IMG/VR virus record: IMGVR_UViG_3300042892_000077
Location: 1 to 56,281 of that record
Length of the DNA: 56,281 nucleotides
Strand: one strand, 5' to 3'
Source: a virus
Taxonomy: Duplodnaviria; Caudoviricetes
Under the pieces are notes generated by a model. That model worked only from the letters and a program-made list of their open reading frames with translations, did not search any database and was not told the DNA's origin. The stretch's first letter is position 1. Every line of letters starts with the position of its first letter. Shown piece by piece: positions 1 through 56,281 of the stretch. A program made the translations under genes and the position numbers.

Positions 1-59
1 AATTGGCATGACACTCACAACAGTAAACCCAGCCCTGCTGGACACCCAAGCCCAGTACA
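1..59. repeat. Terminal direct repeat (copy 1), circular assembly overlap
   Basis: nt 1-59 are identical to 56223-56281. Confidence 0.97.
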
Positions 60-1087
60 CAGGGTTCAAGAACCGCATCATCAACGGCGCAATGGTGATT
101 GACCAGAGGAATGCTGGGGCGACAACCACACCGGCAGACTTCGCGTTTATCACTGACCGCTGGCAAGTTCGTCAAAGCACGGCATCAAAAATGTCGGCGG
201 GTCAAAGCTCGACAGTGCCAAATGGTTTTTCAAAATCTTTGCTTATTACTTCGCTGTCTTCTTATACAGTGAGTTCAAGTGATGTTTATGTTGTGCGGCA
301 GCAGATTGAGGGTTTTAACACTGCTGACCTTGGCTGGGGTACTGCCAACGCACAAGCGGTAACGCTGTCATTTAAGGTGCGGTCTTCTTTAACTGGCACA
401 TTTGGCGGTTCGTTTCTAAATGCAGCAAACAACCGCAGTTATGTTTTCACATACACCATCAACGCAGCAAACACTTTTGAAGACAAAGCTGTAACTATTG
501 CTGGTGACACCACAGGCACATGGGAAACTGGCAACCTGCGCGGCATTCAAATTTCGTTTGGGTTGGGGGTGGGGTCTACCGCCAGTGGTACTGCTGGCTC
601 TTGGGGTACAGCCGCATTAGCTTCAGCCACAGGCGCAGTCTCAGTAGTCGGCACAAGCGGAGCCACCTTCTACATCACAGGCGTACAGCTTGAGAAGGGC
701 AGCACAGCCACCAGCTTTGACTACAGGCCGTATGGCACGGAAATGCCGCTGTGTCAGCGGTATTACGAGAAAATGTTTGAGCCTTTTGGCTTTGGTCGTG
801 CAAACGGCTCACCTGCCCCACGCTTTTTTGCGAGGTTTACTGTGCAAAAAAGAGCAATCCCAACCTGCACTGGCGTCGGTAGTTTTTCGTGTTCTGATAT
901 GTTTACAGTGGACACAGTACAAAGTGCGGCACAAGGCGCAAGCGTAATTTCTGATATCACTACCAATGGCCTTTTGTTTGGATTTCTTAGTAGCACGCTA
1001 ATTAACTCAGCGCCTTTTTCAAACGGTGTTGTTTGCGCCAACCTAACTTCATCTGGCGCTTTTGTAACAGCCTCATCGGAGCTTTAA
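8..1087 (+). CDS. Tail fibre/receptor-binding protein (paralog of 53858..55453)
   Basis: [17 protein letters not shown] ... [17 protein letters not shown] ... CQRYY motifs; Ser/Thr/Gly rich; ends in SSEL. Confidence 0.75.
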
Positions 1088-1089
1088 TC

Positions 1090-1233
1090 ATGTACCGACT
1101 TATTAAAGAAGACGCTAATGTCGTGCATCGCCTGTCAGACAACGCCTTCATCCCCTTCGACCCAGCGAACACAGACTACCAAGCCTACCTCGCATGGCTG
1201 GCCGAGGGCAACACGCCAGAGGCCGCAGAATGA
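1090..1233 (+). CDS. Small fibre-associated protein/chaperone (47 aa)
   Basis: [27 protein letters not shown]; ATG just after fibre stop; paralog at 55454. Confidence 0.7.
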
Positions 1234-1472
1234 GCGATCACGATGTAACCCACCGAGAAATCTACGATAGGCTGGTGGCTGTTGAGACTAAGGTGGATGC
1301 TCTGACCGAGAACACCAAGGACGTGGTGTCAGCGTTTGCTGCTGCACAGGGTGCGTTCCAAGTGTTGGAGATGCTCGGCAAGTTAGCCAAGCCGTTGCTG
1401 TGGATTAGTCTGTGGGTGGGCGGGGTATCCGCTGCCATCGTCACATTCTGGGAACACTTCAAGGTGCGCTGA
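1230..1472 (+). CDS. Small membrane protein (coiled coil + C-terminal TM), possibly holin/antiholin-like
   Basis: ATGA overlap with upstream stop; hydrophobic C-terminus; start of lysis region. Confidence 0.55.
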
Positions 1473-10168: not shown

Positions 10169-13100
10169 ATGGCCACAGCAGGACTCTCTTTCGCCGACCC
10201 GTTTCTCGCAAAGGTCAACGTCGGTGAGGAGCCGAATCCCTATGCGCCGTACAGCCCAACGTCCAGCATGGGAGCGGGTGGTCTTGCTCCGTCTGCTGCC
10301 GACATGGCTGTCATGGGTGAGTCGCTGGTTAAACAAAGCCAGTTCACGATGCCCGCGATGCGCAAGCCCCCGGCCATTGCGTTCAGTCCAACAACCAAGG
10401 AGTTGTTTGTCAATGGCTTGACGTTTGCTGCGGATGATGCGTCTACTGCGCTTCAGTCTGAGCAGTATCTACGCGGCCCCGGCACTGGTCTACCAACAGG
10501 CGGCGACTGGGTTCCGCTCGACGAGCAAGCCTACGCACAGTACCTTGACTCCATCCGCAACCCCAGCTTGGGCCGACTGGCATCCAAGTCATTTGGGCGT
10601 GGTGTTGACTCCATGCAGATGATGGCTGGCCGTGGTGCCCAGCTTCTTGGGGCTGAGGAGACTGGTGCCAATATCGTGGAGCAGCAAGCTGAGGAACTGC
10701 GCAAGACTGAGCCCTTTGAGCGGCAGTTCACCGACATCGAGTCGGGCCGTGGTGCTGTCGAGTGGTTCGTCGCCAACTTCGCCCAGCAAGGGCCAAACCT
10801 GATTGAGTCCGTGGTGACTGCTGGTGCTGGTTTCCTTGCAGGTACAGCCGCTGGTGGCCCTGCCGCTGGTGCGACTGCTGCGTTCGCTGGCCTCATGGGC
10901 AAGTCCGCGTTCAAGGAAGCCATCAAGGCCGCTGCCCAGAAGAAGATTGCGGGTGAAGCCCTGAACGCCGCAGAGAACAAACTCCTGCGTGAAGCCGCTG
11001 GCTTGGCCGGTGCTGTTGCCACATCCTACGCGCAGAACCTTGCCACTGGTGCTGCTGACATCTACGGTGAGTTGCGTGACCAAGGTGCTGATGCCACGGA
11101 CATGGATGCCCGCCTCAAGGCGCTGGCCGGAAGTGTGCCCTACGCTGCACTGGAGACCCTGCCTGAGTTCTTGCTGGCCGGTCGCTTGTTCGGCGCTGGT
11201 GGTCGTGCCGCCCTGCCCGCAGGTGCCAGCCGTACGGCTCGTGCTGGTGAGTTACTCAAGCGGGGTGCGATTGGTGGTGCAGTAGGCGGTACTGCTGAGG
11301 GCTTAACTGAAGCTGGGCAAGAGAGTCTGTTGCTTGGTATCTCTGACCAAGACCTGAGTTCCCCTGAGAGCGTTGACCGCCTCATCAATTCGTTTGCCGC
11401 TGGCTTCGGTGTCGGTGGCCCCATCGGTGCTGTTGCCAACCTCAAGGGCAAGAAGGCCGCGAACCTGCTGAACCCTGCCCAGAACCCAGAGCAGACCCCC
11501 GGTGCAGCCACAGGTACAGGCTTGGCAGTAATCCCACCGACTGCACCACCTACCCCCGGCACGGGTATGGCTCCGTACTTCTCGCCCATTACGCCGACAG
11601 CCAACGCGCCAACTCCGGGCGCTGCGCAACTGCAACTGCCGCCTCCCGGCCAAGTGCTTCAGGTACAGGGTCGCCCGAACTTCGTGGTGGATTCCAGCGG
11701 TATGGTGCGTCAGGCCATGCCAGAAGACACGATTGTTGGTGTCACAGCCAACATCCCTCCGGGTGCCCAGCCCGGCTCGCAAGGTGTGCTCAACATCTTC
11801 GGCGGTCAGCCCGTCACCGCTGGTGAGATCGCAGCCCGTACTCAAGCAGTTGGTGCCCCACCTGAACTAGGGTATACCCCTACGGCCCCACAGCCAGACG
11901 CCCGGCAAGGTGCGCTTCAGTTCGGTGCTCCTGCCCCTACGCCCGTGGCAAACACACAGATGCCCAACCAGTTGCAGGCCATCCAAGACCGGATGCGCAG
12001 GCAGCGTGAGTTCGAGGCTGCACAGGCCCAGCAGCAAGCACAAGTCCAGCAGCAGATGGAGCAGATCGCTCTGCAAAGCCGCAACGCCCGTGACCTGTAC
12101 ACCATGCAGCAAGCCCAGCAAGCTGCCGCCCAGCAGCCGTCGTTGCCGATGGTTCCTGTGACCCGTCCAGCGCCGCAGCAGTTACCGCTGTTTACCCGCA
12201 AGCAAGCACCCATCCCCCCACGTGCCGGGCAGTTACGCCGTGGTGGCCGTATGGCTGCGCCTGTTGCCCCAGCCGAGGGTGATCGTGGCCTGCGCCAAGC
12301 CACACTGCAAGTGCCCATGTTCGGCACCACTGGTGAGCCCACACTGCCAGCGCTTCGGGCAGCAGGTGTTAAGGGCAAACTTAGCAAACCTGTGCCTGCC
12401 AAGGGTGTCAAGCAGATTCCACCTACCGGCAAGGCCGTGACTCCTGCGTCTGTCGAGCGGGCCAAGGCCGCTGAGGCAGCGAAAGTAACCAAGCTCAAGG
12501 CGGGCATCGCCAAACTCAAAGCAAAGGAGACTCCAAGTGCCATTCAAAAGCCAAGCCCAGCGCCGGTACCTGCACGCGGTCGAGCCGCAACTGGCAAGCA
12601 AGTGGGAGAAAAAGTACCCAGTGAAAAGCAAGCTGCCGGAAAAGGTGAAGCCCTCAAAGCCGAAGCCAAAGTCGAAACCGTAACCGACAAGCTCGCTGCA
12701 CGTATCGCCAAAGGTGCCTTCGGTGGCCCTGCTGGCGCACTCGGGGAGAAACTCAAACAGAGAAAGACTCCCCCAGCAAAAAAAGCTGAGGCGGCACCCG
12801 CTGCCGCCGTCGAGGAAGAACAGTTCGTACCCAAGACTGTTGCTGAACTGGAGGCCGTTGCCCAAGCCAAGCGTGCAGCCCAAGTCCAAGAGGAAGAACA
12901 GACTCCTGCCGACACGTTGGCAGAGGACATGCAGGTTGCAGAGACCGCCACCGATATTGCTACGTTCCGTGGTGCTATCCAGACGGTGCTCAACTACGCC
13001 TACTTCACGGGTGAAGAAACCAACACCAAGAAGCTGGTGGAACAGGCGCGTGCCTTCCTCGCTACCACCCAGTTTTCACTGGAGCAGGTGGGCGCAATTG

Positions 13101-16100
13101 ACCAAGCGTTCTTGGATGCTGCCCAGTCTACGATTGCCCTCGAAGCCATGTACAAAGGCGGCGTCAACAAGGGTAAGAACAAGCCGTGGTTCGACTACGC
13201 TGTCAGCCGTAACCTGCTGCCCAGTATCACTGTGCGCGTTACCAATCTGCCACCGGCATACAAGCCACAGGCATCCCCTATCAGCGGCAAGATCGCCAAG
13301 ACTGTGCCCGTGGAGACCAGTGCTGAGAAGCTGACCCTCACCCCGCAAGCCCGCCTCGGCGAGTTGATCGACGCACTGGTCACGCAACTGCGCACTGTGA
13401 CCCGACTGAACCAAGAGGTGAAGTTCCAAGGTACGTCGTACGCCAACGTCGTGGAGTTAGCCAAGGGGCTCTACGCTGCCACTGATGCTGTTGGTCGTGA
13501 GTACGTTATTCGTGGCTACAAGCTCAAGGATTACTTCACCGACAAGGGTGAACCCAAGATGCTCAAGTCGGGTGGTCGGTACCTGATTACCAACAGAGAC
13601 ATGACCACGGCTGATCAGCGCAAGCTGGAGCAAGAACAGAAAGCCACTGCCAAGGCGCTGGCTGCTGAAGCCAAAGCCAAGTTCGAGGAAGACGTTGACC
13701 TTGAGTCCCGCCTTGGTGGCGGCGCATTCAATGTTGAGGACGACTGGGACAGTGCCGATGGCATGTTCTACCGTGATGACGGCACCCCGATTGCTGCGTC
13801 TATCCCTGCCGGTCGTGTGCAAATGATCGTCAAAGGGTTCCTGTCCAAGCTGCGCAGCAAGCCGACAACCTACGTCTACAACAACGTGGCTGACCTCAAG
13901 GCCCGCAACCCCAAGCTGTTTGCCCGCGCCAGTGCTGCACGTAAGCAAGGCGACTTCGAGTCCACCAACTCGGTGGGTTACTCCTTCGGCCCGAACGTCA
14001 TCATCTTCAGCGACTTCGTGCGCACTGAGCAGCAGCTTAAGTTTGTGCTGGCACACGAGACACTGGGCCACTTCGGCTTCAAGGGTGTGATTCCACAGGC
14101 GCAACTCAACGAGGTGCTGACGCGCATCTATGACGCAGACGTGGACTTGCAAGCTGCTGTCGATGCGATGGTACAGAACCAAGGCATGAGCAAGCTGGAA
14201 GCTGTTGAGGAATATCTGGCCGACAACGCTGCCGATCTGGATACGTCCATCGTGGCTCGCATCTGGAACGTCCTGAAGAACTTCCTGAACAAGCTCGGCT
14301 TTGACTTCCGCGACGACGAGGCTCGCTACTTTGTCAACCAAGCTCGCAAGTATGTGCGCCGTGGTGATGGCGGTAACTTCGTCGGAGTCAAGGCAATCGT
14401 CGGTGACATGGAGCAGCTTGAGCAAGACCGTGATGATGGTCGCTACGCTCGGCAGTCGATGGGCACACTGGCATCTCGGGCATTTGCCACGGGGGCTATG
14501 AACCGGCAGTACGGTGGCACTGGTGGTCTGGCTGGTGCGATGGAAGCGTTTGCCAAGGGTGCCTTCGGTGCTCGCAAGGATGTCCCCGGTCGTATCGCCT
14601 CCGTGCTTGAGCAAGTCCAGACACTGGACAACAAGGCTCGCCGCAGTTACGGTCTGAACCAAATCTACAGGTTGCTTGAAAAGCAGCAGCAGTACGCACG
14701 CGCTTTGCTGTCGAAGTACCAGCGTATGACGGCGTTCACCCACTCACCCGATGTGTTCGGGTTTGGCAACGGTGTGACCGAGGCACAGAAGGAAGTGTCT
14801 GGCGAGTTGCTGTCACGCGCTGCGCTGCTGCGTGCCGCTGAGGCTACCGATGAAGTCATCAAGTCGTACGACAGTCTGGTCTCAGTAGACGCCAGTGGTG
14901 TGATCAACGTAGACCCGATTGTGCGGCAAGCCATTGAGAAAGCTGGCTTCGTGACGGCTGAGGAGTTCCGCAAGGGCTTCGACATCACCTACTCCAACGG
15001 CGAGAAGGTGCGCTTCCAGTTCGACGTGAAGGAAGACAGCCCAGAGTGGAAGGTCTACACCGAGTTGCGTGAGACTGTGAACGATGCAGCTATCGACCTG
15101 ATGCTGTCCAACTACGAAGCTGCACAGGCTGAAGGCAAGCGCGTCATCAGCGATCTAAACGCCAAGCGCAAGGGTGCGAACGTGTTCACGGCGATGGACT
15201 TGGAAGCTGTTCGTCAAGCTGCCATGCTGTACCAAGAAAAGCGGTATGCAGGTAGTGACGTTGCCAGTGCTGGTGTTGACCTCAAGCGCAAGTCGCAGAA
15301 GGAATCCGAGGAGTTCGTGGTCGCATTCGGTCGGGCACTGTTCAACGATGACGTGTTCGCAGTGTGGATGAAAGACCCAGCCGCCAAGGCTGAGATCGCC
15401 AAGGACATGGAGGAGTTCCTCAAGGCTGAGTACGATGACCTGCGTGCCCAACTGCCAAGTCTGCGCAGCAAGATCAAGGGCGACACCCAGTCGTTCGAGG
15501 TGCAGAAAGCTATCCGCGATCTGTTCATGTTCGACCTGCAATCCAAGAACGCAGACTACTACGCCAAGCGCACCATCCTTGGTTCGTATGTTCCGTTCAC
15601 ACGCCGTGGCTCTGAGCAAGTGCGACTCGTGGCTGTTGATGAGCGGGGCAACCCAGTGCAACTGGACGAGAACCTGCGTGCCACGCTGCCGTACTTCCAG
15701 TTCGATAGCCGCAGTGAAGCAACCGCCGCTGCTGAGGAGTTGGAGGCTGAGTTCGGTGGCGATAACGAGTGGGTGATGCTTGACGAGACTGGCTCTGAGA
15801 CCACTGTCCGGCTGCGCCCCGAAGTATCCAAGACCCGTCAGTCCCCTGACTTGACTGAAGCAGTGAACTTCAACGAGTTCGTCTACGTGCTGAACCGACT
15901 GAACGTCAACCTCGCACCAGAGACTCGTGAGAAGATCGTCACGACACTGACCAACCAGAACAGTCGCGCACGCCGCAACCTCCAGCGTTCTGGTACTGAG
16001 GGCTGGGATAAGAATGTGGTGCGCTCCGTGTCTGAGCATCTGGAAACGTCGGCTCACGTCGCTGCCAAGAAGCTGTACCGCCACCGCCTCGACGACATCT

Positions 16101-17995
16101 TGCTGACAACCGGCAATTGGTTGGGGGATGAGGGTAAGCTCAACGCACTGAAAGATGCCGTGGATAGTGCTACGTCAGACGGTGCCCGCGCCCGCGCCCA
16201 GCGTGAGTACGATGAGTACGCCTTCATGTACCAGTACATGGCCGGTAGCCGTGGCGGCAAGACTGTCACCATCGGTGGCAAGGAAGTACCCACACTGGGT
16301 CGTGGCGAGGACTACCGTGAAGAAGCCAAGCAGGTGCTGCGTTGGTACAGCGAAGCGTCCAACATCACGGACTCCACCGAGGACATGCTGTCTGGCGAAG
16401 CTGGTTCTGCACTCAAACTTACCACGGTGCTGATGCAGTTGGGTGGCTCTGTCGCCACGGCTGTGATCAACTTGGCATCGCTTGTCACACACAGCCTGCC
16501 ATACCTGTCGTACTACAACTCGGCTCGCGGGTTCGGTGGTGGCTACGGTGAGGCCAAGTCTGCCACTGCGCTCTGGAAAGCTGCCAAGGACTTGAAGAAC
16601 CCCAACTTGTCCGAGGATGCGTTCCTCAACGAGATGATGCGTGATGGTTCGTACGAGCAGTACGGCTTGACGGAAGACGAAGCGCAGTTCTTGTTTGACC
16701 AGACCGAGCAGGGCACACTGCAAGCATCCCAGTTCAACGCGCTCGTGGGTACTGCACGCGGCAAGGTGTTCAACAACAAGGCACAAGCTGCCATTAAGTT
16801 GTGGATGTCCATGTTCAGCTACACCGAGTCGGTCAACCGCCGTGTCACGGCACTGGCTGCGTACCGGCTGGAGAAAGACCGCGCACTTGCCCAAGGTGTG
16901 GACGAAGCACAGGCTATCACTGACGCCACAGAAGCTGCCCGTAAAGCAGTCAACTACGCGCAGGGTGAGTACGCCATGTTCAACCGCCCCGAGATGGCTC
17001 GTGGCAACGTGCTGCAATACATCTTCATGTACAAGCAGTTCGTGATCGTGACTGTGCAGTTGCTGCGTAACATGCCCAAGGAAGGGCAGTTGATGATGCT
17101 TGGCTTCTTGCTGCTGACATCCGGTCTCAAGGGTCTGCCGTTTGCTGAGGACATCTTCGACATCGTGGACACCATCGCGCAGAAGCTGGGGCTGAAGATG
17201 CCAAGCGTGGAGAAAGCACTGTCCGAGTGGATTGATGCTGTAGCCCCCGGCGCTACACCCTACCTGATGCGTGGTGCGCTTGACCGGGTGACTGGTGCAA
17301 CGGTCTCCACCCGCATGGGTATGGGCGATCTGATTCCACTGACTGGTGCGTTCCGCGCTGGTGCTGACCCTGCTCGTGAGGCCGCAGACTTTGCTGGCCC
17401 AGTGTTCAGTGGTATCACAGGGCTGGTAGGCATGGCTGGTTCTCTCACCAAGTACGGTGCGGAAGTAACAGGTCTGCGTGACGACACCACGGACTTCAAC
17501 ACTGTGCTGCGTGAGTCTCCGGTTGCTGCGTTCCGCTCAGTCGGCGACAGCTTCGCCTTCCTCACCGATGGCCGGATAACAAACATGCGTGGACAAGTTG
17601 TGGCAAATGAAGCACCGCTGCACACAGTCGTCGCCCGTCTGTTGGGCTTCTACCCTGCCATTGCCACGGAGCAGAACGACATCGTGCGTATCTCCAAGCA
17701 AGCGACCGAGTACAACAAGGCGATCAAGGCTGAGTACGTCAAGTCGTATGTCAAGGCCAAGCTGGCTGGTGACTCTGACCGCATGGCTAGCATCGCTGAG
17801 GATGTGCGCGAGTGGAACGAAGCTGCCAAGGGTACGGGGCTGGAGATCACCTCGTTCGGTAAGTCAGCCAACCGTGCCGCACTCGAAGCATCCCGTCCGA
17901 CAGTAGCCCGTTATCTCAAGTCAGCACCCAAACAGATGCGGCCTGAGACATTGGAACTGCTGCGGCTCAACGGACTGGACGACGAGATCAGATAG
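10169..17995 (+). CDS. Giant polyvalent virion/ejection protein (2608 aa) with zincin-like metallopeptidase and PLxRFG-like region
   Basis: AHETLGH...EEYLA zincin-like motif; YVPFTRRG; helical C-terminus; GAGGT RBS. Confidence 0.75.
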   Translation: MATAGLSFADPFLAKVNVGEEPNPYAPYSPTSSMGAGGLAPSAADMAVMGESLVKQSQFTMPAMRKPPAIAFSPTTKELFVNGLTFAADDASTALQSEQYLRGPGTGLPTGGDWVPLDEQAYAQYLDSIRNPSLGRLASKSFGRGVDSMQMMAGRGAQLLGAEETGANIVEQQAEELRKTEPFERQFTDIESGRGAVEWFVANFAQQGPNLIESVVTAGAGFLAGTAAGGPAAGATAAFAGLMGKSAFKEAIKAAAQKKIAGEALNAAENKLLREAAGLAGAVATSYAQNLATGAADIYGELRDQGADATDMDARLKALAGSVPYAALETLPEFLLAGRLFGAGGRAALPAGASRTARAGELLKRGAIGGAVGGTAEGLTEAGQESLLLGISDQDLSSPESVDRLINSFAAGFGVGGPIGAVANLKGKKAANLLNPAQNPEQTPGAATGTGLAVIPPTAPPTPGTGMAPYFSPITPTANAPTPGAAQLQLPPPGQVLQVQGRPNFVVDSSGMVRQAMPEDTIVGVTANIPPGAQPGSQGVLNIFGGQPVTAGEIAARTQAVGAPPELGYTPTAPQPDARQGALQFGAPAPTPVANTQMPNQLQAIQDRMRRQREFEAAQAQQQAQVQQQMEQIALQSRNARDLYTMQQAQQAAAQQPSLPMVPVTRPAPQQLPLFTRKQAPIPPRAGQLRRGGRMAAPVAPAEGDRGLRQATLQVPMFGTTGEPTLPALRAAGVKGKLSKPVPAKGVKQIPPTGKAVTPASVERAKAAEAAKVTKLKAGIAKLKAKETPSAIQKPSPAPVPARGRAATGKQVGEKVPSEKQAAGKGEALKAEAKVETVTDKLAARIAKGAFGGPAGALGEKLKQRKTPPAKKAEAAPAAAVEEEQFVPKTVAELEAVAQAKRAAQVQEEEQTPADTLAEDMQVAETATDIATFRGAIQTVLNYAYFTGEETNTKKLVEQARAFLATTQFSLEQVGAIDQAFLDAAQSTIALEAMYKGGVNKGKNKPWFDYAVSRNLLPSITVRVTNLPPAYKPQASPISGKIAKTVPVETSAEKLTLTPQARLGELIDALVTQLRTVTRLNQEVKFQGTSYANVVELAKGLYAATDAVGREYVIRGYKLKDYFTDKGEPKMLKSGGRYLITNRDMTTADQRKLEQEQKATAKALAAEAKAKFEEDVDLESRLGGGAFNVEDDWDSADGMFYRDDGTPIAASIPAGRVQMIVKGFLSKLRSKPTTYVYNNVADLKARNPKLFARASAARKQGDFESTNSVGYSFGPNVIIFSDFVRTEQQLKFVLAHETLGHFGFKGVIPQAQLNEVLTRIYDADVDLQAAVDAMVQNQGMSKLEAVEEYLADNAADLDTSIVARIWNVLKNFLNKLGFDFRDDEARYFVNQARKYVRRGDGGNFVGVKAIVGDMEQLEQDRDDGRYARQSMGTLASRAFATGAMNRQYGGTGGLAGAMEAFAKGAFGARKDVPGRIASVLEQVQTLDNKARRSYGLNQIYRLLEKQQQYARALLSKYQRMTAFTHSPDVFGFGNGVTEAQKEVSGELLSRAALLRAAEATDEVIKSYDSLVSVDASGVINVDPIVRQAIEKAGFVTAEEFRKGFDITYSNGEKVRFQFDVKEDSPEWKVYTELRETVNDAAIDLMLSNYEAAQAEGKRVISDLNAKRKGANVFTAMDLEAVRQAAMLYQEKRYAGSDVASAGVDLKRKSQKESEEFVVAFGRALFNDDVFAVWMKDPAAKAEIAKDMEEFLKAEYDDLRAQLPSLRSKIKGDTQSFEVQKAIRDLFMFDLQSKNADYYAKRTILGSYVPFTRRGSEQVRLVAVDERGNPVQLDENLRATLPYFQFDSRSEATAAAEELEAEFGGDNEWVMLDETGSETTVRLRPEVSKTRQSPDLTEAVNFNEFVYVLNRLNVNLAPETREKIVTTLTNQNSRARRNLQRSGTEGWDKNVVRSVSEHLETSAHVAAKKLYRHRLDDILLTTGNWLGDEGKLNALKDAVDSATSDGARARAQREYDEYAFMYQYMAGSRGGKTVTIGGKEVPTLGRGEDYREEAKQVLRWYSEASNITDSTEDMLSGEAGSALKLTTVLMQLGGSVATAVINLASLVTHSLPYLSYYNSARGFGGGYGEAKSATALWKAAKDLKNPNLSEDAFLNEMMRDGSYEQYGLTEDEAQFLFDQTEQGTLQASQFNALVGTARGKVFNNKAQAAIKLWMSMFSYTESVNRRVTALAAYRLEKDRALAQGVDEAQAITDATEAARKAVNYAQGEYAMFNRPEMARGNVLQYIFMYKQFVIVTVQLLRNMPKEGQLMMLGFLLLTSGLKGLPFAEDIFDIVDTIAQKLGLKMPSVEKALSEWIDAVAPGATPYLMRGALDRVTGATVSTRMGMGDLIPLTGAFRAGADPAREAADFAGPVFSGITGLVGMAGSLTKYGAEVTGLRDDTTDFNTVLRESPVAAFRSVGDSFAFLTDGRITNMRGQVVANEAPLHTVVARLLGFYPAIATEQNDIVRISKQATEYNKAIKAEYVKSYVKAKLAGDSDRMASIAEDVREWNEAAKGTGLEITSFGKSANRAALEASRPTVARYLKSAPKQMRPETLELLRLNGLDDEIR
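12537..12683 (+). CDS. Nested +1-frame small basic protein MPFKSQAQRRYLHAVEPQLASKWEKKYPVKSKLPEKVKPSKPKPKSKP (48 aa)
   Basis: AAGGAG at 12524-12529, 7 nt before GTG; resembles, from recall, the phage 'MPFKSxxQRR' small-protein family. Confidence 0.65.
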   Translation: MPFKSQAQRRYLHAVEPQLASKWEKKYPVKSKLPEKVKPSKPKPKSKP

Positions 17996-50462: not shown

Positions 50463-50924
50463 ATGAACGCAAACGACAAACTTCAACTCTCAGGTGCGCT
50501 GGGCATCGTCATCACCGGCAAAGACGGCGTGGTCAAGGAGTCGAAAACTGTACCCAACCTTGTAGTCAACGCAGGCTTGGCGTTCATCACCAGCCGCATG
50601 ACCGGCACCGCCAAGGCTGTAATGAGCCACATGGCTGTGGGTGCAGGTACCTCGGCTGCTGCCGCGACTGACACCGATCTGGGCAGTCTGCTGGGAGTAC
50701 GTAAAGCGCTGACCAGCGCGACTATCTCCGGGGCCAACAACCAAGCCATCGTGTACGTTGCCACCTTCGCCGCTGGCGAGGGCACTGGCGCTATCACAGA
50801 AGCAGGCATCTTCAATGCAAGCAGCAGCGGGGACATGCTCTGCCGCACGGTGTTTGCAGTGGTCAACAAGGCTGTTGACGACACGATGCAGATCACTTGG
50901 ACTATCACGCTGTCGGCTTCTTAA
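50463..50924 (+). CDS. Tail fibre-collar-like structural protein
   Basis: NLVVNAG, HMAVGAGT, ITEAGIFNA, ITWTI. Confidence 0.65.
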   Translation: MNANDKLQLSGALGIVITGKDGVVKESKTVPNLVVNAGLAFITSRMTGTAKAVMSHMAVGAGTSAAAATDTDLGSLLGVRKALTSATISGANNQAIVYVATFAAGEGTGAITEAGIFNASSSGDMLCRTVFAVVNKAVDDTMQITWTITLSAS

Positions 50925-50934
50925 GAGGTAGCAC

Positions 50935-51180
50935 ATGGCTGTCATCGTCACACGAACAGGTAAAGGCTCCCCGCTTACAAACGCGGAGTTGGACGCCAAC
51001 TTTGTCAACATCAACAACCAGCTTGCGACGGCAGATATTACTGCTGGCACGATCACTGGAATTACTGACTTGGCAATTGCTGACGGTGGCACAGGTGCGT
51101 CCAACGTGGCTGGGGCGCAGGCCAATTTACAGGTAGACCCCGCTGGTACGGCTGTGGCCCTCGCCATCGCGCTTGGATAA
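50935..51180 (+). CDS. Short fibre-like protein
   Basis: KGSPLTNAELDANF, LAIADGGTGAS, ALAIALG. Confidence 0.65.
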   Translation: MAVIVTRTGKGSPLTNAELDANFVNINNQLATADITAGTITGITDLAIADGGTGASNVAGAQANLQVDPAGTAVALAIALG

Positions 51181-51189
51181 GGATAAATC

Positions 51190-51516
51190 ATGGCAAATAC
51201 ATTCAAAAACTTCTTGAGCAAGAACGTCGGCACATCCCCTGCCACGGTCTACACATGCCCGACCGCGACCCAGACCACCATCATCGGGTTCTCAATTGCC
51301 AACACCTCGGCCTCCCCGATCACCTGTGATGCCTACATCACGTCCAGCGCAGTGAGCTACTACCTCATCAAGTCGGCTGTGGTGCCTGTGGGTGGTTCGC
51401 TGGTCATCGTGGGTGGCGACCAGAAGGTCGTGCTTGAGGCGGCGGATGTGCTGCTTGTTGTAACCTCGGCGGCAACGTCTGCTGATGCGGTCTGCTCCCT
51501 GCTGGAGATTGCATAA
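51190..51516 (+). CDS. Small structural protein
   Basis: MANTFKN...VYTCP...KVVLEAAD; AAGGA RBS. Confidence 0.65.
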   Translation: MANTFKNFLSKNVGTSPATVYTCPTATQTTIIGFSIANTSASPITCDAYITSSAVSYYLIKSAVVPVGGSLVIVGGDQKVVLEAADVLLVVTSAATSADAVCSLLEIA

Positions 51517-52799
51517 TGGCATACATCGGCTCCACTCCAACCACCCAGAGCTTCGTCGCTGGGACGGACTACTTCAACGGTACGGGGTCGCAGGTTGCCT
51601 TCACGCTCAGTCGGTCGGTCAACTCGGTCAATGACATTGAAGTCATCGTCAACAATGTCGAGCAGATTCCCAGCGGCTACTCGGTATCGGGTACAACGCT
51701 CACGTTCTCAGCAGCCCCATCGGCGGGTACGAGCAATGTGTATGTGCGGTATCTGACAACGACTTTGCAAAGCATTGCACCCGGTCAAGGTACAGTAGGA
51801 ACCACTCAATTACAAGATAATTCTGTTACGGCTTCAAAAATTGCTAGCGGCGCGGTGTCACCGGCTGCTGTGTCAGACCAAAATAATACCTCCACTGGGT
51901 ATTTTGATTTGCCTGCTGGGACTACAGCACAGCGCCCGGGAACACCTGTTAATGGGATGCTTCGGTACAACAGCACTACAGCTAAAATTGAAGCCTATCA
52001 AAACGGTGGGTGGACAAATTACGCCCTTGCATATGACATTCAGGTTCTTGTAGTAGCTGGCGGCGGTGGCGGTTCTGCTACGGCTGGCGGTGGCGGCGGT
52101 GGCGGCGGTTATATTGCCACGACAGCAAGCGTTAGTTCAGCAGGCGCGTACGCAATTATTATTGGCGGCGGCGGTACTGGGGCTACGGTTGACGGGGGCA
52201 GTGGCGTAAACGGAACAGCTTCCGCGTTTGCTCTTACGACTACTGTAGGCGGCGGCGGCGGAGCGCACGGTGGAGCTAACACACTAGGCGGTGGTTCAGG
52301 CGGCGGTGGCGGATATGGTTCACTTGCGGCAGGTGGAATTGGAACAGTTGGCCAAGGAAATAACGGCGGTGCAGGCGGAAATGTCAACGCACCAAATTAT
52401 CCTTGCGGCGGTGGCGGCGGTGCAGGCGCGGTTGGCGGTTCTTGTACTCCGGGTTCCGCTGCGGGTGGCCTTGGCGGCGCGGGTGCGCAATGGCTTAACG
52501 GGTCGTACTACGCTGGCGGCGGTGGGGGTTCTGGTACAGGAAATGCTGCTGGGGGCGTAGGCGGCGGCGGCAGAGGTGGCCTCGTTGCTGATGCAACAAA
52601 ATTACCCGGCACTGCCAATACAGGCGGCGGTGGCGGTGGCGGTGGATTCGGTGGTACTGGTGGCGCTATCGGTAATGGTGGCTCTGGCGTTGTCATCGTC
52701 CGTTACGAGGGGGCTACAAAAGGTACGGGCGGCACTATAACTTCCGCAGGTGGCTTTACATTCCACACCTTTACTTCATCTGGCACATTCACGGCGTAA
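51516..52799 (+). CDS. Glycine-rich tail fibre/adhesin
   Basis: LPAGTTAQRP..G.LRYN; VVAGGGGG...GGSGVVIVRY polyglycine domain. Confidence 0.75.
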   Translation: MAYIGSTPTTQSFVAGTDYFNGTGSQVAFTLSRSVNSVNDIEVIVNNVEQIPSGYSVSGTTLTFSAAPSAGTSNVYVRYLTTTLQSIAPGQGTVGTTQLQDNSVTASKIASGAVSPAAVSDQNNTSTGYFDLPAGTTAQRPGTPVNGMLRYNSTTAKIEAYQNGGWTNYALAYDIQVLVVAGGGGGSATAGGGGGGGGYIATTASVSSAGAYAIIIGGGGTGATVDGGSGVNGTASAFALTTTVGGGGGAHGGANTLGGGSGGGGGYGSLAAGGIGTVGQGNNGGAGGNVNAPNYPCGGGGGAGAVGGSCTPGSAAGGLGGAGAQWLNGSYYAGGGGGSGTGNAAGGVGGGGRGGLVADATKLPGTANTGGGGGGGGFGGTGGAIGNGGSGVVIVRYEGATKGTGGTITSAGGFTFHTFTSSGTFTA

Positions 52800-52808
52800 G
52801 GATAGGAC

Positions 52809-53093
52809 ATGGCGCATTTTGCAAAAGTTGTTAACGGCCTAGTAATGCAAGTCATCGTTGCAGAGCCAGAATTCTTCAACACATTTGTGGACTCTAGTTC
52901 AGGTGAGTGGGTACAGACCAGCTACAACATGCTGGGGGGCGCTCATGCACTCGGTGGTACTCCCCTGCGTAAAAACTACGCTGGCATCGGGTACACATAC
53001 GATAGCACCCGTGATGCGTTTATCCCACCAAAACCAGAAGGCGACTGGACATTAAACGAAGACACTTGTTTGTGGGAAACGGAGATTAAATAA
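52809..53093 (+). CDS. Small partner of the Gly-rich fibre
   Basis: MAHFAKV...WVQTSYN...RKNYAGIGYTYD..RDAFIPP. Confidence 0.7.
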   Translation: MAHFAKVVNGLVMQVIVAEPEFFNTFVDSSSGEWVQTSYNMLGGAHALGGTPLRKNYAGIGYTYDSTRDAFIPPKPEGDWTLNEDTCLWETEIK

Positions 53094-53596
53094 TGCCACT
53101 CAGCAAAATTGACAGCGACAGCCTGAACAGCGGGTTGACTTTTAGCGGCCAGCAAACGATACCCACCATCAACCTGACGGGTGGTCAGATCACGTTCCCC
53201 GCAACCCAAGTGCCATCGGCTGACGCAAACACGCTGGATGATTATGAGGAGGGAACTTGGACGCCTGCGCTTGCTCCCGTAACTGGAACAATTACCTCAC
53301 AAAGTGTTTTTGGTAGTTATATAAAAATAGGCAATCAAGTAACTTTAACTTTTAAAGCAATTATCACTGGTGGGACAGTTACCGCTATAGGCACTATTGG
53401 CGGCTTTCCATTTACCTCCATAAACGCTAACCAGCAAGCGTGCGGCGCGGCAAGGGAAATACAAGTAACGGGAGCAATATACCAAATTGCAGCAGTTGGT
53501 AACACTGTTACAGCGGATGTTCGTAAATACGACAACTCAACTGCTGTTACAAACTCTTATGGCTGGCAAGGTTCTATAACTTACATCACTTCATAA
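53093..53596 (+). CDS. Short fibre/adhesin
   Basis: SADANTLDDYEEGTWTP...YIKIGNQV...GFPF. Confidence 0.7.
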   Translation: MPLSKIDSDSLNSGLTFSGQQTIPTINLTGGQITFPATQVPSADANTLDDYEEGTWTPALAPVTGTITSQSVFGSYIKIGNQVTLTFKAIITGGTVTAIGTIGGFPFTSINANQQACGAAREIQVTGAIYQIAAVGNTVTADVRKYDNSTAVTNSYGWQGSITYITS

Positions 53597-53606
53597 AAGG
53601 AAACCC

Positions 53607-53861
53607 ATGCCAACATTCACCGAATCTAAAGTCATCGACCAGATCACCGTCACTGAGAACGGCACTGTGCTGTACCGCGAGGCTACACGCATCCTCAAGG
53701 ATGGCGACCAGATTGCTCAGACCTACCACCGCACCAGCCTGACGCCGGGCCAAGACCTCACAGGCCAACCAGCCAACGCGGTGGCTATCTGTAACGCAGC
53801 TTGGACACCAGAGGTTGTTGCAGCCTACCAAGCCGCACAAGCCAACCGGGAAACACCATGA
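53607..53861 (+). CDS. Small fibre partner protein
   Basis: DQITVTENG...YHRTSLTPG...ICNAAWT; AAGGA RBS. Confidence 0.7.
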   Translation: MPTFTESKVIDQITVTENGTVLYREATRILKDGDQIAQTYHRTSLTPGQDLTGQPANAVAICNAAWTPEVVAAYQAAQANRETP

Positions 53862-55453
53862 GCTACATAGGCGCAGAGCCAACCACAGCAGCGTTTCCGT
53901 TTGACCAGTTCAGCGGGACGGGCGCAGCTACATCTTTCACGCTGACTTACGCTCCTGCGAGTGCTACGTCTATCCTTGTCGCCATCTCTGGCGTGATGCA
54001 GAACCCCAACCTGTACTCAGTCATTGGGACAACCCTGTCGTTCAGCCCAGCCCCACCAGCGGGAACCAACAACATCTCGGTGCTGTATCTGGGCCTGCCG
54101 GTCATCGGCTCAAGCTCACCGGGCAACACTGCGTTCATGAGTTCAACTGATCTGACTGCCACGGCGGGCCAGACTGTCTTTGCTTCTGCGGGCAGCTACA
54201 CCCCCGGCTTCGTGCAGGTCTACCGCAACGGCGCAAGGCTGGGCAACGCTGACTTCACAGCTACCAACGGAACCACCATCACGCTGGCTGTAGGGGCCAC
54301 TGCTGGCGATCTGGTGACGATTGAGTACTACACCCTCACTTCGCTGACCAACGCCCTCCCACTGACAGGCGGGACAGTAACTGGGTCAACGACATTTAAT
54401 ACCGGAGTCACGATCAATGGGGGCTTGGTGTCGGGCTTCACGGGCATGAAGAACAGGATCATCAACGGGAACATGGTGATAAGCCAAAGGAATAACTCTA
54501 CGAGTGTGACGCCTGCGGCTTCGGCTTACACGTTGGATCGCTGGGAAGCTGGTATGTCGGCGGCGTCCAAGTTTTCAGTCCAGCGCAGCACAACAGCGCC
54601 AGCAGGCTTTACAAATTCTTTGTTGGCAACCAGTACGTCGGCATATACGGCCACCACAAGCCAGACGTTTAACCTGACGCAGTTCATTGAAGGCTTTAAC
54701 GTAGCTGACATGGGTTTTGGCACTGCCAGCGCTCAGACTTTTACTTTGTCGTTTCAGGTTCGTAGTTCGCTTACAGGCACGTTTGGTGGCGCTTTCCAGA
54801 ACTCAGACCGCACAAGATCGTATCCCTTTACGTTCACCATCAGCGCGGCCAACACGTTTGAAACAAAGACGGTGACAGTGGCGGGGGATACTTCGGGCAC
54901 ATGGCTGACTGACAGCGGTCGCGGCTTGAACGTGATCTTTTCTTTGGGCGCTGGCGCTACTCTTAGCGGCACATCAGGTGCATGGGCCACAGCAACCTAC
55001 TACTCAGCCACAGGCGCAACCTCCGTTGTTGGCACAAGCGGCGCAACCTTCTACATCACTGGTGTGCAACTGGAGCGCGGCAGCAACGCCACCAGCTTTG
55101 AGTTCATTGACTACGGACGGCAGTTGGCACAGTGTCAGCGGTATTATCAATTAGCAGAAGGTTTTAATGGTATTGCTGCGGGTAGTGGTACAGTTATGTA
55201 CTGCACTATGCAATTTAAAACAGAAATGCGTGCAAATCCAAGTGTGTCTGCAAATGCCAACATTCAAATTACATATCCGGGTGTAAATGACTACACACAA
55301 TCTTCCCCAAGTATTACGATAAGTGCAGGCAGGGTATCCACAAGGGCAATCCAGTTAAATATAAATAATTTTACAGGACTTACAAGCCTTAGCCCGTTGT
55401 CACACAATGTTGGAATAAACAATGCTTCTGTAACACTTAGTTCGGAGTTATAA
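53858..55453 (+). CDS. Tail fibre/receptor-binding protein
   Basis: N-terminal Ig-like repeats; MKNRIING...VQLERG...CQRYY; ends in SSEL. Confidence 0.75.
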   Translation: MSYIGAEPTTAAFPFDQFSGTGAATSFTLTYAPASATSILVAISGVMQNPNLYSVIGTTLSFSPAPPAGTNNISVLYLGLPVIGSSSPGNTAFMSSTDLTATAGQTVFASAGSYTPGFVQVYRNGARLGNADFTATNGTTITLAVGATAGDLVTIEYYTLTSLTNALPLTGGTVTGSTTFNTGVTINGGLVSGFTGMKNRIINGNMVISQRNNSTSVTPAASAYTLDRWEAGMSAASKFSVQRSTTAPAGFTNSLLATSTSAYTATTSQTFNLTQFIEGFNVADMGFGTASAQTFTLSFQVRSSLTGTFGGAFQNSDRTRSYPFTFTISAANTFETKTVTVAGDTSGTWLTDSGRGLNVIFSLGAGATLSGTSGAWATATYYSATGATSVVGTSGATFYITGVQLERGSNATSFEFIDYGRQLAQCQRYYQLAEGFNGIAAGSGTVMYCTMQFKTEMRANPSVSANANIQITYPGVNDYTQSSPSITISAGRVSTRAIQLNINNFTGLTSLSPLSHNVGINNASVTLSSEL

Positions 55454-55615
55454 ATGTACAAACAATACAAAGACACAATGACTGGCGAAGTCGCAGACAA
55501 AGCAATCATCCGCACAGCAGACGGTGCATGTATCCCCTTTGACCCCGCGAACACCGACTACATCGCTTACTTGGCATGGCTTGAAGCTGGCAACACACCG
55601 GAGGCAGCAGAATGA
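55454..55615 (+). CDS. Small fibre chaperone-like protein (53 aa), paralog of 1090..1233
   Basis: [27 protein letters not shown]; absent from ORF track. Confidence 0.7.
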   Translation: MYKQYKDTMTGEVADKAIIRTADGACIPFDPANTDYIAYLAWLEAGNTPEAAE

Positions 55616-56070
55616 CCGCAGCAGTAACTCTCGCATCACTGGGCAACGGCCCAGCGTTTAATGCTTATACAAAAACAGCACAATCAATTTCATCAAGTAC
55701 GTTTACAAAAATTCAGTTTAACGTAAAAAGATTTGATACCGCAACAGCGTATGACGCAACCACTAACTATAGATTTCAACCTTTAGTCGCTGGATACTAT
55801 CAAATTAATGCAAACATAAGCGGTGGTGGAGGCACTACTGGCTATTGGCAATGTTACATATTTAAAAATGCAAGTCAATATTCTGCCGGTAGCGGCATCC
55901 CCAATAACACTAATGTTGGTGGAAAAATAACTGCGTCAACAGTTATGTATCTTAATGGATCAACTGACTACGCTGAGTTTTATGTTTGGCAGAATAACGG
56001 AACTTCTATTGCACTACAAGTTGCCGATGGAGATAACACCTTTTCGGGTGCAATGGTAAGGGGCGCATAA
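55612..56070 (+). CDS. C1q/TNF-like beta-sandwich adhesin
   Basis: PAFNAY, KIQFN..FD, YRFQPLVAGYYQIN, LNGSTDY.E, FSGAMV. Confidence 0.7.
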   Translation: MTAAVTLASLGNGPAFNAYTKTAQSISSSTFTKIQFNVKRFDTATAYDATTNYRFQPLVAGYYQINANISGGGGTTGYWQCYIFKNASQYSAGSGIPNNTNVGGKITASTVMYLNGSTDYAEFYVWQNNGTSIALQVADGDNTFSGAMVRGA

Positions 56071-56071
56071 C

Positions 56072-56233
56072 ATGACACTCTACGACAAAATCATGGCTTT
56101 GTACCCGTCACTCACAGACAGTGACTTCATGACCACAATCAGGCTCCAGAACGACTCTGACGGTAGGGGCGACTACATTGCTGCGTGGGAACACCCAACG
56201 CTGGCACGACCAACTGAGGAGCAATTGGCATGA
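56072..56233 (+). CDS. XkdW-like small protein (53 aa)
   Basis: ALYP....DF...LQNDSDGRGDYIAAWEHPTLARPTEEQL; ATGA coupling into the gene at 8. Confidence 0.65.
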   Translation: MTLYDKIMALYPSLTDSDFMTTIRLQNDSDGRGDYIAAWEHPTLARPTEEQLA

Positions 56234-56281
56234 CACTCACAACAGTAAACCCAGCCCTGCTGGACACCCAAGCCCAGTACA
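56223..56281. repeat. Terminal direct repeat (copy 2)
   Basis: Identical to nt 1-59. Confidence 0.97.

Follow-up and report, generated by a model that had tools for sequence, protein, structure and literature searches.

Five consecutive fibre genes of a podovirus-like phage genome are each followed by a small gene that probably encodes a head-specific assembly partner

Two described systems, Pam3 gp24/gp25 and TfaMu, come closest to the gene array analysed here. In both, the chaperone gene lies directly after the fibre gene, and a beta domain of ~55 amino acids (aa) docks laterally, one copy per fibre subunit in a 3:3 complex, on a head that is TNF-like or glycine-rich. As described for the myocyanophage Pam3 in PMC9608196, this docking part is the 55-aa N-terminal beta-sandwich of gp25, which docks on every fibre subunit at its TNF-like domain; the helical C-terminal domain of gp25 trimerises the 3:3 gp24-gp25 assembly, and gp25 is absent from virions. 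A marine system is described in PMC10579305 for the Alteromonas phages A5/V22, where fibre and cognate chaperone are exchanged as one module across phage families, and where the chaperones are proposed to be transient caps joined to the fibre by beta-sheet pairing. Here we analyse an array of five such gene pairs in the IMG/VR virus record IMGVR_UViG_3300042892_000077 (Duplodnaviria; Caudoviricetes), the whole 56,281 nucleotides (nt) of which we call the window. Each of its five large genes for fibres or fibre heads (F1-F5) is followed by a small gene (S1-S5) whose product, we conclude with moderate confidence, is an assembly partner specific to that head, that is, a minimal tail-fibre chaperone.

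The window holds both head types of the Pam3 and TfaMu systems, a C1q/TNF-like one (F4) and a glycine-rich one (F1), and its small genes share the characteristic position of Tfa-type chaperone genes, directly downstream of the fibre served, with gaps of 0-10 nt. However, gp25 and TfaMu carry a second, helical trimerisation domain, whereas the window partners are single domains of 47-94 aa; none of S1-S5 thus has the two-domain Tfa-type layout of an N-terminal fibre-binding part and a C-terminal oligomerisation part. No sequence similarity between the window partners and Pam3 gp25 or TfaMu was detected, and, unlike those systems, one genome here combines four unrelated partner families for four head folds. 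In A5/V22, too, a marine phage fibre and its chaperone are inherited as a module, and the modelled interface of their heterohexamer is formed by beta-strand pairing, but these chaperones described in PMC10579305 are helical, intramolecular-chaperone-like proteins with beta-hairpin tentacles, and there is one pair per genome instead of five. Peptidase_S74 chaperones, which are intramolecular and sit at the C-terminus of fibres and tailspikes, also serve the folding of the trimeric fibre end; they are cis-acting and are removed by cleavage, and a Pfam scan found none in F1-F5, although they are present in related arrays and in gp54 of the isolate MEP401 (see below). A further relative is XkdW of the Bacillus subtilis element PBSX (PF09636; structure 2hg7), which, like an XkdW-like protein of phage Sam46, has a C-terminal extension beyond the part that resembles S4. 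The Sam46 gene lies among tail genes, and the extension of its product is a coiled coil whose mutations alter plaque type, as reported in PMC8190038. C1q-like proteins (10) and XkdW (4) figure in the list of marine 'metaviromic islands' of Mizuno et al. (PMC3909814), a list that does not link them. In a literature search that did not cover supplements, we found nothing linking XkdW or PHROGs 7759, 6228 or 20370 to a head fold; nor did we find work on phage C1q-like heads with chaperones or on PBSX XkdV.

An earlier note, made from the bare sequence, had claimed that five large/small pairs follow one another through the contig junction. We recovered all ten open reading frames (ORFs), strictly alternating and all on the plus strand:

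51516..52799, + strand: F1, fibre of 427 aa; anchor (residues 1-140) plus glycine-rich C-terminal domain
52809..53093, + strand: S1, 94 aa, partner of glycine-rich heads; phrog_7759, E 3e-23
53093..53596, + strand: F2, anchorless head of 167 aa, similar to tailspike C-terminal domains
53607..53861, + strand: S2, 84 aa, partner of F2-type heads; phrog_6228, E 4e-19
53858..55453, + strand: F3, fibre of 531 aa; anchor plus head resembling carbohydrate-binding modules (CBM-like), with a CQRYY motif
55454..55615, + strand: S3, 53 aa, family S35, partner of CBM-like heads; phrog_20370, positions 5-47 of 148
55612..56070, + strand: F4, anchorless C1q/TNF-like head of 152 aa (AlphaFold2 model and Foldseek)
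56072..56233, + strand: S4, 53 aa, XkdW-type partner of C1q-like heads; Pfam XkdW
8..1087, + strand: F5, anchorless CBM-like head of 359 aa; its ATG at 8 is also that at 56230, within the terminal repeat; the gene spans the junction
1090..1233, + strand: S5, 47 aa, paralogue of S3; phrog_20370, E 3.5e-13

The junction is closed by an exact 59-nt direct repeat (bases 1-59 equal bases 56223-56281), which shows that the contig was assembled as a circle of ~56,222 bp and is a complete phage genome. As the note had also stated, every pair is coupled to the next: all four junctions between pairs overlap, S1/F2 by TAATG and S2/F3, S3/F4 and S4/F5 by ATGA. The large and small gene of a pair are separated by 9, 10, 0, 1 and 2 nt, in order from F1-S1 to F5-S5, and a Shine-Dalgarno-like purine run precedes each of the ten genes.

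At the level of sequence, the partners are four unrelated families: S1, S2, S3/S5 (family S35) and S4. Profile-profile comparison with hhalign found no homology for the pairs S4-S35, S4-S2, S35-S2 and S1-S35 (probability at most 0.5% each); we rejected a common origin for these four compared pairs, and the result agrees with the idea of unrelated fibres with unrelated partners. Conversely, the two CQRYY fibres do have homologous partners, as the note had proposed: F5 is 49% identical to residues 182-531 of F3, and S5 is 79% identical to the last 34 aa of S3. The XkdW-like label given to S4 withstood a Pfam search, in which it passed the gathering threshold (31.1 bits, threshold 24.6; E 1.9e-7). 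Its profile aligns to residues 1-47 of 2hg7 (E 1.7e-7), so that S4 corresponds to the N-terminal half of XkdW only and lacks the full-length 110-aa architecture. The best conserved stretch of S4, residues 38-53, in which W39, P47 and L52 are invariant, aligns with the core of the XkdW domain. S1 is shorter than the norm of its family (~115 aa), without the conserved C-terminal segment of ~20 residues found in most of 46 aligned members, and may be a shortened yet intact variant. PHROGs 7759, 6228 and 20370 are all annotated as of unknown function. In IMG/VR, confirmed relatives number at least 602 for S1 and 357, 337 and 556 for the other three families, and isolated phages encode members that are annotated as 'hypothetical proteins', among them pelagiphages, roseophages, OM43 phages and cyanophages of the myo-, podo- and sipho-type. 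A search of the ESM Atlas with S2 returned unnamed viral clusters only, and no model. The small genes have a pN/pS (the ratio of nonsynonymous to synonymous change) of 0.28-0.34, with pN of 0.21-0.25 and pS of ~0.75, at which synonymous sites are saturated. Saturated synonymous sites combined with low pN indicate purifying selection on the partner proteins, not on the DNA; judged by this signature and by the number of relatives, the small genes are real.

The heads are as diverse as their partners. Residues 1-125 of F1 match phrog_18673 'tail fiber', and residues 166-398 match Pfam Gly_rich_2 (PF21722) above its gathering threshold (62.5 bits against a cut-off of 24.3). F3 matches phrog_4492 'tail fiber' (E 1e-49) and has an N-terminal anchor in common with F1 (39% identity over ~140 aa), which is not present in F2, F4 and F5. 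The NTLDDYEE motif of F2-type heads is invariant across 61 aligned sequences. For F4, the note's C1q-like label is borne out by structure prediction: the AlphaFold2 model is a jelly roll with the ten strands of a gC1q-type fold (mean predicted local distance difference test, pLDDT, 90.7), which Foldseek matched with probability 1.00 to the gC1q domains of C1QL1-3 and C1q (target-normalised template modelling, TM, scores of 0.77-0.86), and also to the phage knobs of the phi812 central spike, the cyanophage A4 fibre and the A-1(L) short-fibre CBD; F4 gave no match to Pfam C1q (PF00386) at E ≤ 0.1. In the F5 model (pLDDT 74), residues ~40-235 form a confidently predicted beta-sandwich, and the prediction of the C-terminal part is poor. 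Its confident domain matched CBM4/11/16/22 in Foldseek (E 5e-6 to 1e-4; target-normalised TM 0.5-0.69), and the F5 profile had no match among solved structures. The F3/F5 heads thus appear CBM-like, with putative sugar binding.

Strong evidence that each partner belongs to its head comes from gene neighbourhoods. We surveyed 418 IMG/VR loci: for each of the queries S1, S2, S3, S4 and F2 the 80 best matches, and for F4 the full set of 19. Plus-strand ORFs were called by a simple procedure and labelled by BLAST to the window proteins and by hidden Markov models of the small families, and duplicates were removed. The gene 5' of S4 was of F4-type in 101 of 103 evaluable loci, that 5' of S3/S5 of F3/F5-type in 158 of 163 loci, and that 5' of S2 of F2-type in 117 of 135. 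Of 86 evaluable S1 loci, 78 had a glycine-rich product encoded just before S1, defined by a G content of at least 28% in the last 220 aa; BLAST alone under-calls this link because the sequence is of low complexity. Not once among these loci did a small gene stand behind the head of another family. The link also holds in the reverse direction: S4 came next after 16 of the 19 heads in loci fetched with F4 and after 39 of 41 F4 heads in loci fetched with non-cognate queries, and S2 came next after 59 of the 77 heads in F2-fetched loci. By eye, at least 7 of the 18 F2 heads that missed S2 are followed by a divergent or duplicated S2-like protein. This neighbourhood check, which covered hundreds of loci, upholds the note's proposal of adhesin folds that move together with partners of their own.

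Around the fixed pairs the context is fluid. The number and order of pairs and the flanking genes differ among contigs (e.g., L295, L139, L151); L295 reads F4, S4, F4, S4, F3/F5-type head, S35, anchor/F2, S2, and L139 reads anchor/F2, S2, F3/F5-type head, S35, anchor/F4, S4. On the 3' side of S4 we found F3/F5-type heads (42), other genes (34), F2 (8), anchor-only proteins (6), F4 (4) or none (6). The ATGA overlaps suggest that each small gene might instead pair with the gene that follows it; we rejected this possibility, as the downstream neighbours vary and the upstream heads are fixed. Heads with and without a fused anchor have their partner alike, and both anchorless and longer head forms are common in the related loci (130 and 50 for F3/F5-type, 22 and 154 for F2, 25 and 120 for F4, respectively). 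Median head-to-partner gaps in these relatives are 0 nt for S35, -1 nt for S4, 9 nt for S1 and 20.5 nt for S2.

Two unrelated isolates carry head-partner pairs as well. In MEP401 (Zobellviridae), gp56 (F4-like; 21.7 bits against Pfam C1q, under the cut-off of 23.7) is paired with gp55 (XkdW), and gp53 (F5-like, 44% identity) with gp52 (S35-like). The paper on MEP401 uses none of the terms 'tail fiber', 'XkdW', 'C1q' and 'mass spectrometry'. In the cyanophage S-2L, the F3/F5-like S2L_50 is followed by S2L_51, a protein of 148 aa with an S35-type N-terminus that is annotated as 'tail fiber assembly-like' and had no match among solved structures. Family-specific linkage together with recurrence in isolates makes head and partner a conserved unit, and we regard it as near certain that they travel together. 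In the surveyed loci L081/L284/L313, L086/L246 and L047/L164/L231/L290, further fibre genes precede conserved short ORFs of other families, whose products measure 58-63 aa, 70 aa and 89-118 aa, and the rule of a head plus a small partner probably reaches beyond the four families of the window.

How a partner might bind its head was approached by a complex prediction with three F4 and three S4 chains, for which we supplied the alignments, and three controls. The cognate complex, whose prediction the earlier note had put forward as a check, scored 0.88 in ipSAE against 0.00 for the best control; at least 96% of contacts agreed between runs and the partner pLDDT was at least 91. The score mark used is reached by 116 of 157 solved complexes and by 2 of 215 mismatched pairs, and serves as a rough guide for a prediction of 3+3 chains with user-supplied alignments. 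Each modelled S4 copy contacts mainly one F4 copy, with ~146 contacts in total, through S4 residues 2-5, 16-20, 23-30, 34 and 37 and F4 residues 27-35, 51-53, 77, 87, 100-102, 124 and 128-132. Taking these contacts together with the strand order, without coordinates, we infer that S4 would lie laterally on the outer F4 sheet, from base to apex, and would not cap the apex.

The S35 family provides a second line of evidence. At least 1702 longer proteins (129 aa or more) begin with its domain, and among 13 of these that we scanned, three contained PF16778 (Phage_tail_APC, 'phage tail assembly chaperone'), two DUF4376 (PF14301) and eight no Pfam match; one of the latter, P0012, has a proline-rich tail. 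The first ~50 residues of the PF16778/PF14301 proteins are homologous to S3/S5, but S3 and S5 end after this N-terminal domain, and both Pfams are absent from the window. These S35-APC proteins, the extension of XkdW and the architecture of Pam3 gp25 make the window partners look like the fibre-binding domain alone. In another of the eight, the metagenomic ORF P0005 (425 aa), an F3/F5-type head is continuous with an S35 domain, which is either a natural fusion or the result of a lost stop codon.

Gene position, the 3:3 model of F4-S4, the S35-APC proteins and the precedent of Pam3 together suggest the following mechanism. Translated directly after its fibre gene, each partner of 47-94 aa would bind the C-terminal receptor-binding domain of that fibre, one copy per subunit (3:3), and keep the head foldable and able to trimerise; it would then probably be released, or be held only transiently as a cap. 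It would thus act as the N-terminal fibre-binding domain of Tfa-type chaperones (TfaMu, Pam3 gp25) does, minus the helical trimerisation domain, and head and partner would form a unit moving between phages. The principle of a fibre-specific chaperone is already known; what is new is that the putative chaperones are minimal, single-domain and fold-specific, and stand five in a row.

Several observations weigh against this interpretation. The partners are without the trimerising domain on which the Tfa/gp25 mechanism relies; S1-S5 gave no match to the chaperone Pfams PF02413 and PF16778 at E ≤ 0.1, and the S35, S2 and S1 profiles had none among solved structures, including chaperones. The complex prediction covers F4-S4 alone, one of four pair types, in its cognate pairing only, and part of its score may reflect prior exposure of the model to the solved Pam3 complex. 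Within F4, conservation at the predicted interface is no higher than elsewhere (0.55 versus 0.54, permutation p 0.43). Heads and partners also co-diverge weakly, with Mantel r of 0.56 (S4), 0.17 (S2) and 0.05 (S35) in broad sets and of 0.08 and 0.11 in loci with both pair types (first 60 of 62), against ~0 for non-cognate comparisons; we therefore discarded mirror-tree co-divergence as support, the signal being weak to absent when both pair types are compared within the same loci. In addition, partners are far more conserved than heads (median pairwise identity 0.77 for S4 versus 0.47 for F4), which fits any conserved binding role and not a chaperone specifically. Finally, the surveyed loci are biased towards relatives of the window and depend on simple ORF calling and BLAST labels.

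The high conservation of the partners relative to the heads would also suit permanent virion subunits or adaptors that fasten the anchorless heads (F2, F4, F5) to another fibre or the tail, or that aid receptor binding. T2 gp38 and TfaMu, the latter of which stays on the fibre (as cited in PMC10579305), provide parallels at the fibre tip; three of the five window heads are without an N-terminal anchor; and the conserved residues 38-53 of S4 are not part of the predicted F4 interface and might bind a different target. Nevertheless, these residues align with the XkdW core and may be mere fold residues, and the partner is equally present after anchor-fused heads (F1, F3 and most F2 and F4 relatives). 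Moreover, anchorless heads in related loci follow separate anchor/shaft proteins and do not depend on the small gene, and the Pam3 chaperone is absent from virions (PMC9608196). We consider a structural role of this kind unlikely. The related idea that the partners are transient caps, which mainly mask the receptor-binding surface until after lysis instead of assisting folding, has been proposed for the A5/V22 chaperones, and according to PMC10579305 the A5 fibre folds without its chaperone. Modelled S4 does hide a large part of the exposed F4 surface in every subunit, but its predicted contacts, judged from strand order without coordinates, would follow the flank of the head without focusing on the apex loops, and we give masking as the main function little credence.

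It is highly improbable, in our view, that the linkage has no basis in protein-protein contact, the small genes being conserved recombination linkers between fibre cassettes or having an unrelated role such as lysis timing. Conserved small genes flanking hypervariable heads are indeed a layout that would favour cassette exchange, and the array adjoins the lysis cassette. However, a pN/pS of ~0.3 with saturated synonymous sites reveals selection on the protein, and the zero cross-family pairs, the P0005 fusion and the F4-S4 complex score all point to a physical link. A head-specific assembly partner therefore remains the interpretation that we favour, as a probable one.

The remaining features of the genome place the array between fibre-related and lysis genes:

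51190..51516, + strand: g108, conserved 108-aa gene before F1; phrog_1276, E 1.4e-8; its stop overlaps the F1 start
1230..1472, + strand: holin-like gene opening the lysis cassette; phrog_689 holin, E 0.003; ATGA with the S5 stop
56223..56281 (= 1-59), no strand: terminal direct repeat of 59 nt, the overlap of the circular assembly

Translational coupling reaches beyond the array at both ends, through TAATG at g108/F1 and through the S5 stop, which overlaps the holin-like ATG at 1230. In related loci the holin-like gene is also found directly 3' of the S35 gene, and the order g81-g108-fibre is seen again. The translationally coupled lysis cassette (1230-2986) consists of the holin-like gene, a 163-aa gene, a holin (2073-2525) and an endolysin (2522-2986), the last matching PHROG 894. 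On the 5' side, 50463-51180 contains two more fibre-related genes. The product of one, 153 aa long, weakly matches Phage_tail_fib and Gp80 fibre models (phrog_5417), and that of the other, 81 aa long, weakly matches tail-fibre PHROGs; the anchorless heads might attach to either of them. By gene content, the phage is podovirus-like: PHROG matches identify a terminase, a portal/adaptor and structural proteins, a minus-strand DNA polymerase and helicases, and holin and endolysin. A product of 813 aa has its match in PHROG 511 'internal virion protein', and one of 609 aa in 'lytic tail protein' and endolysin-domain PHROGs. A further ORF (10169-17995) encodes 2608 aa, of which only the last ~500 match PHROGs, those of unknown function; its product is probably a giant ejection or virion protein. 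Comparison at the DNA level with phage isolates was discarded as a guide, since it gave nothing beyond short matching patches.

The related loci also show how anchorless heads may be attached. Headless anchor/shaft proteins were found in L193, L269, L316, L088, L146, L121 and others, and in the first three of these the headless anchor protein is directly followed by an anchorless head of F4-type or F3/F5-type, which suggests two-piece fibres. Among 44 scanned anchor-bearing fibres without these heads, 12 end in Peptidase_S74; Pfam and PHROG scans found no anchor-only or S74 protein near the window array. Anchorless heads of differing folds share a few recurring N-terminal peptide types of ~12-16 aa each, which are possible docking peptides. 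A broader interpretation, which we consider possible if rather doubtful, is that the array is a plug-and-play receptor-binding kit made of anchor/shaft proteins, free heads and one-domain trans-acting chaperones, one family per head fold. Equally tentative is its extension to assembly, in which the anchor/shaft proteins would be matured by a cis-acting S74 chaperone in related phages and the heads would dock via their short N-terminal peptides. Were such a kit real, a small podovirus could display up to five different heads on branched fibres and swap head-plus-partner cassettes by recombination, and XkdW and PHROGs 7759, 6228 and 20370 would be the first four families of an extensive, hitherto overlooked class of minimal fibre chaperones among aquatic phages.

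The more restricted interpretation of the partners as head-specific assembly factors already has practical consequences. It proposes a testable function for XkdW, a protein with a solved structure and a hitherto unassigned role, and likewise for three PHROG families with hundreds or more members labelled 'hypothetical'. The linkage yields an annotation rule, by which head fold X is followed by partner X, that helps to find receptor-binding genes in uncultivated aquatic phages, and for recombinant expression of a head it names the small gene to co-express. For the chaperones themselves, it would mean that the minimal functional unit of the Tfa type may be the fibre-binding domain of ~50 aa alone.

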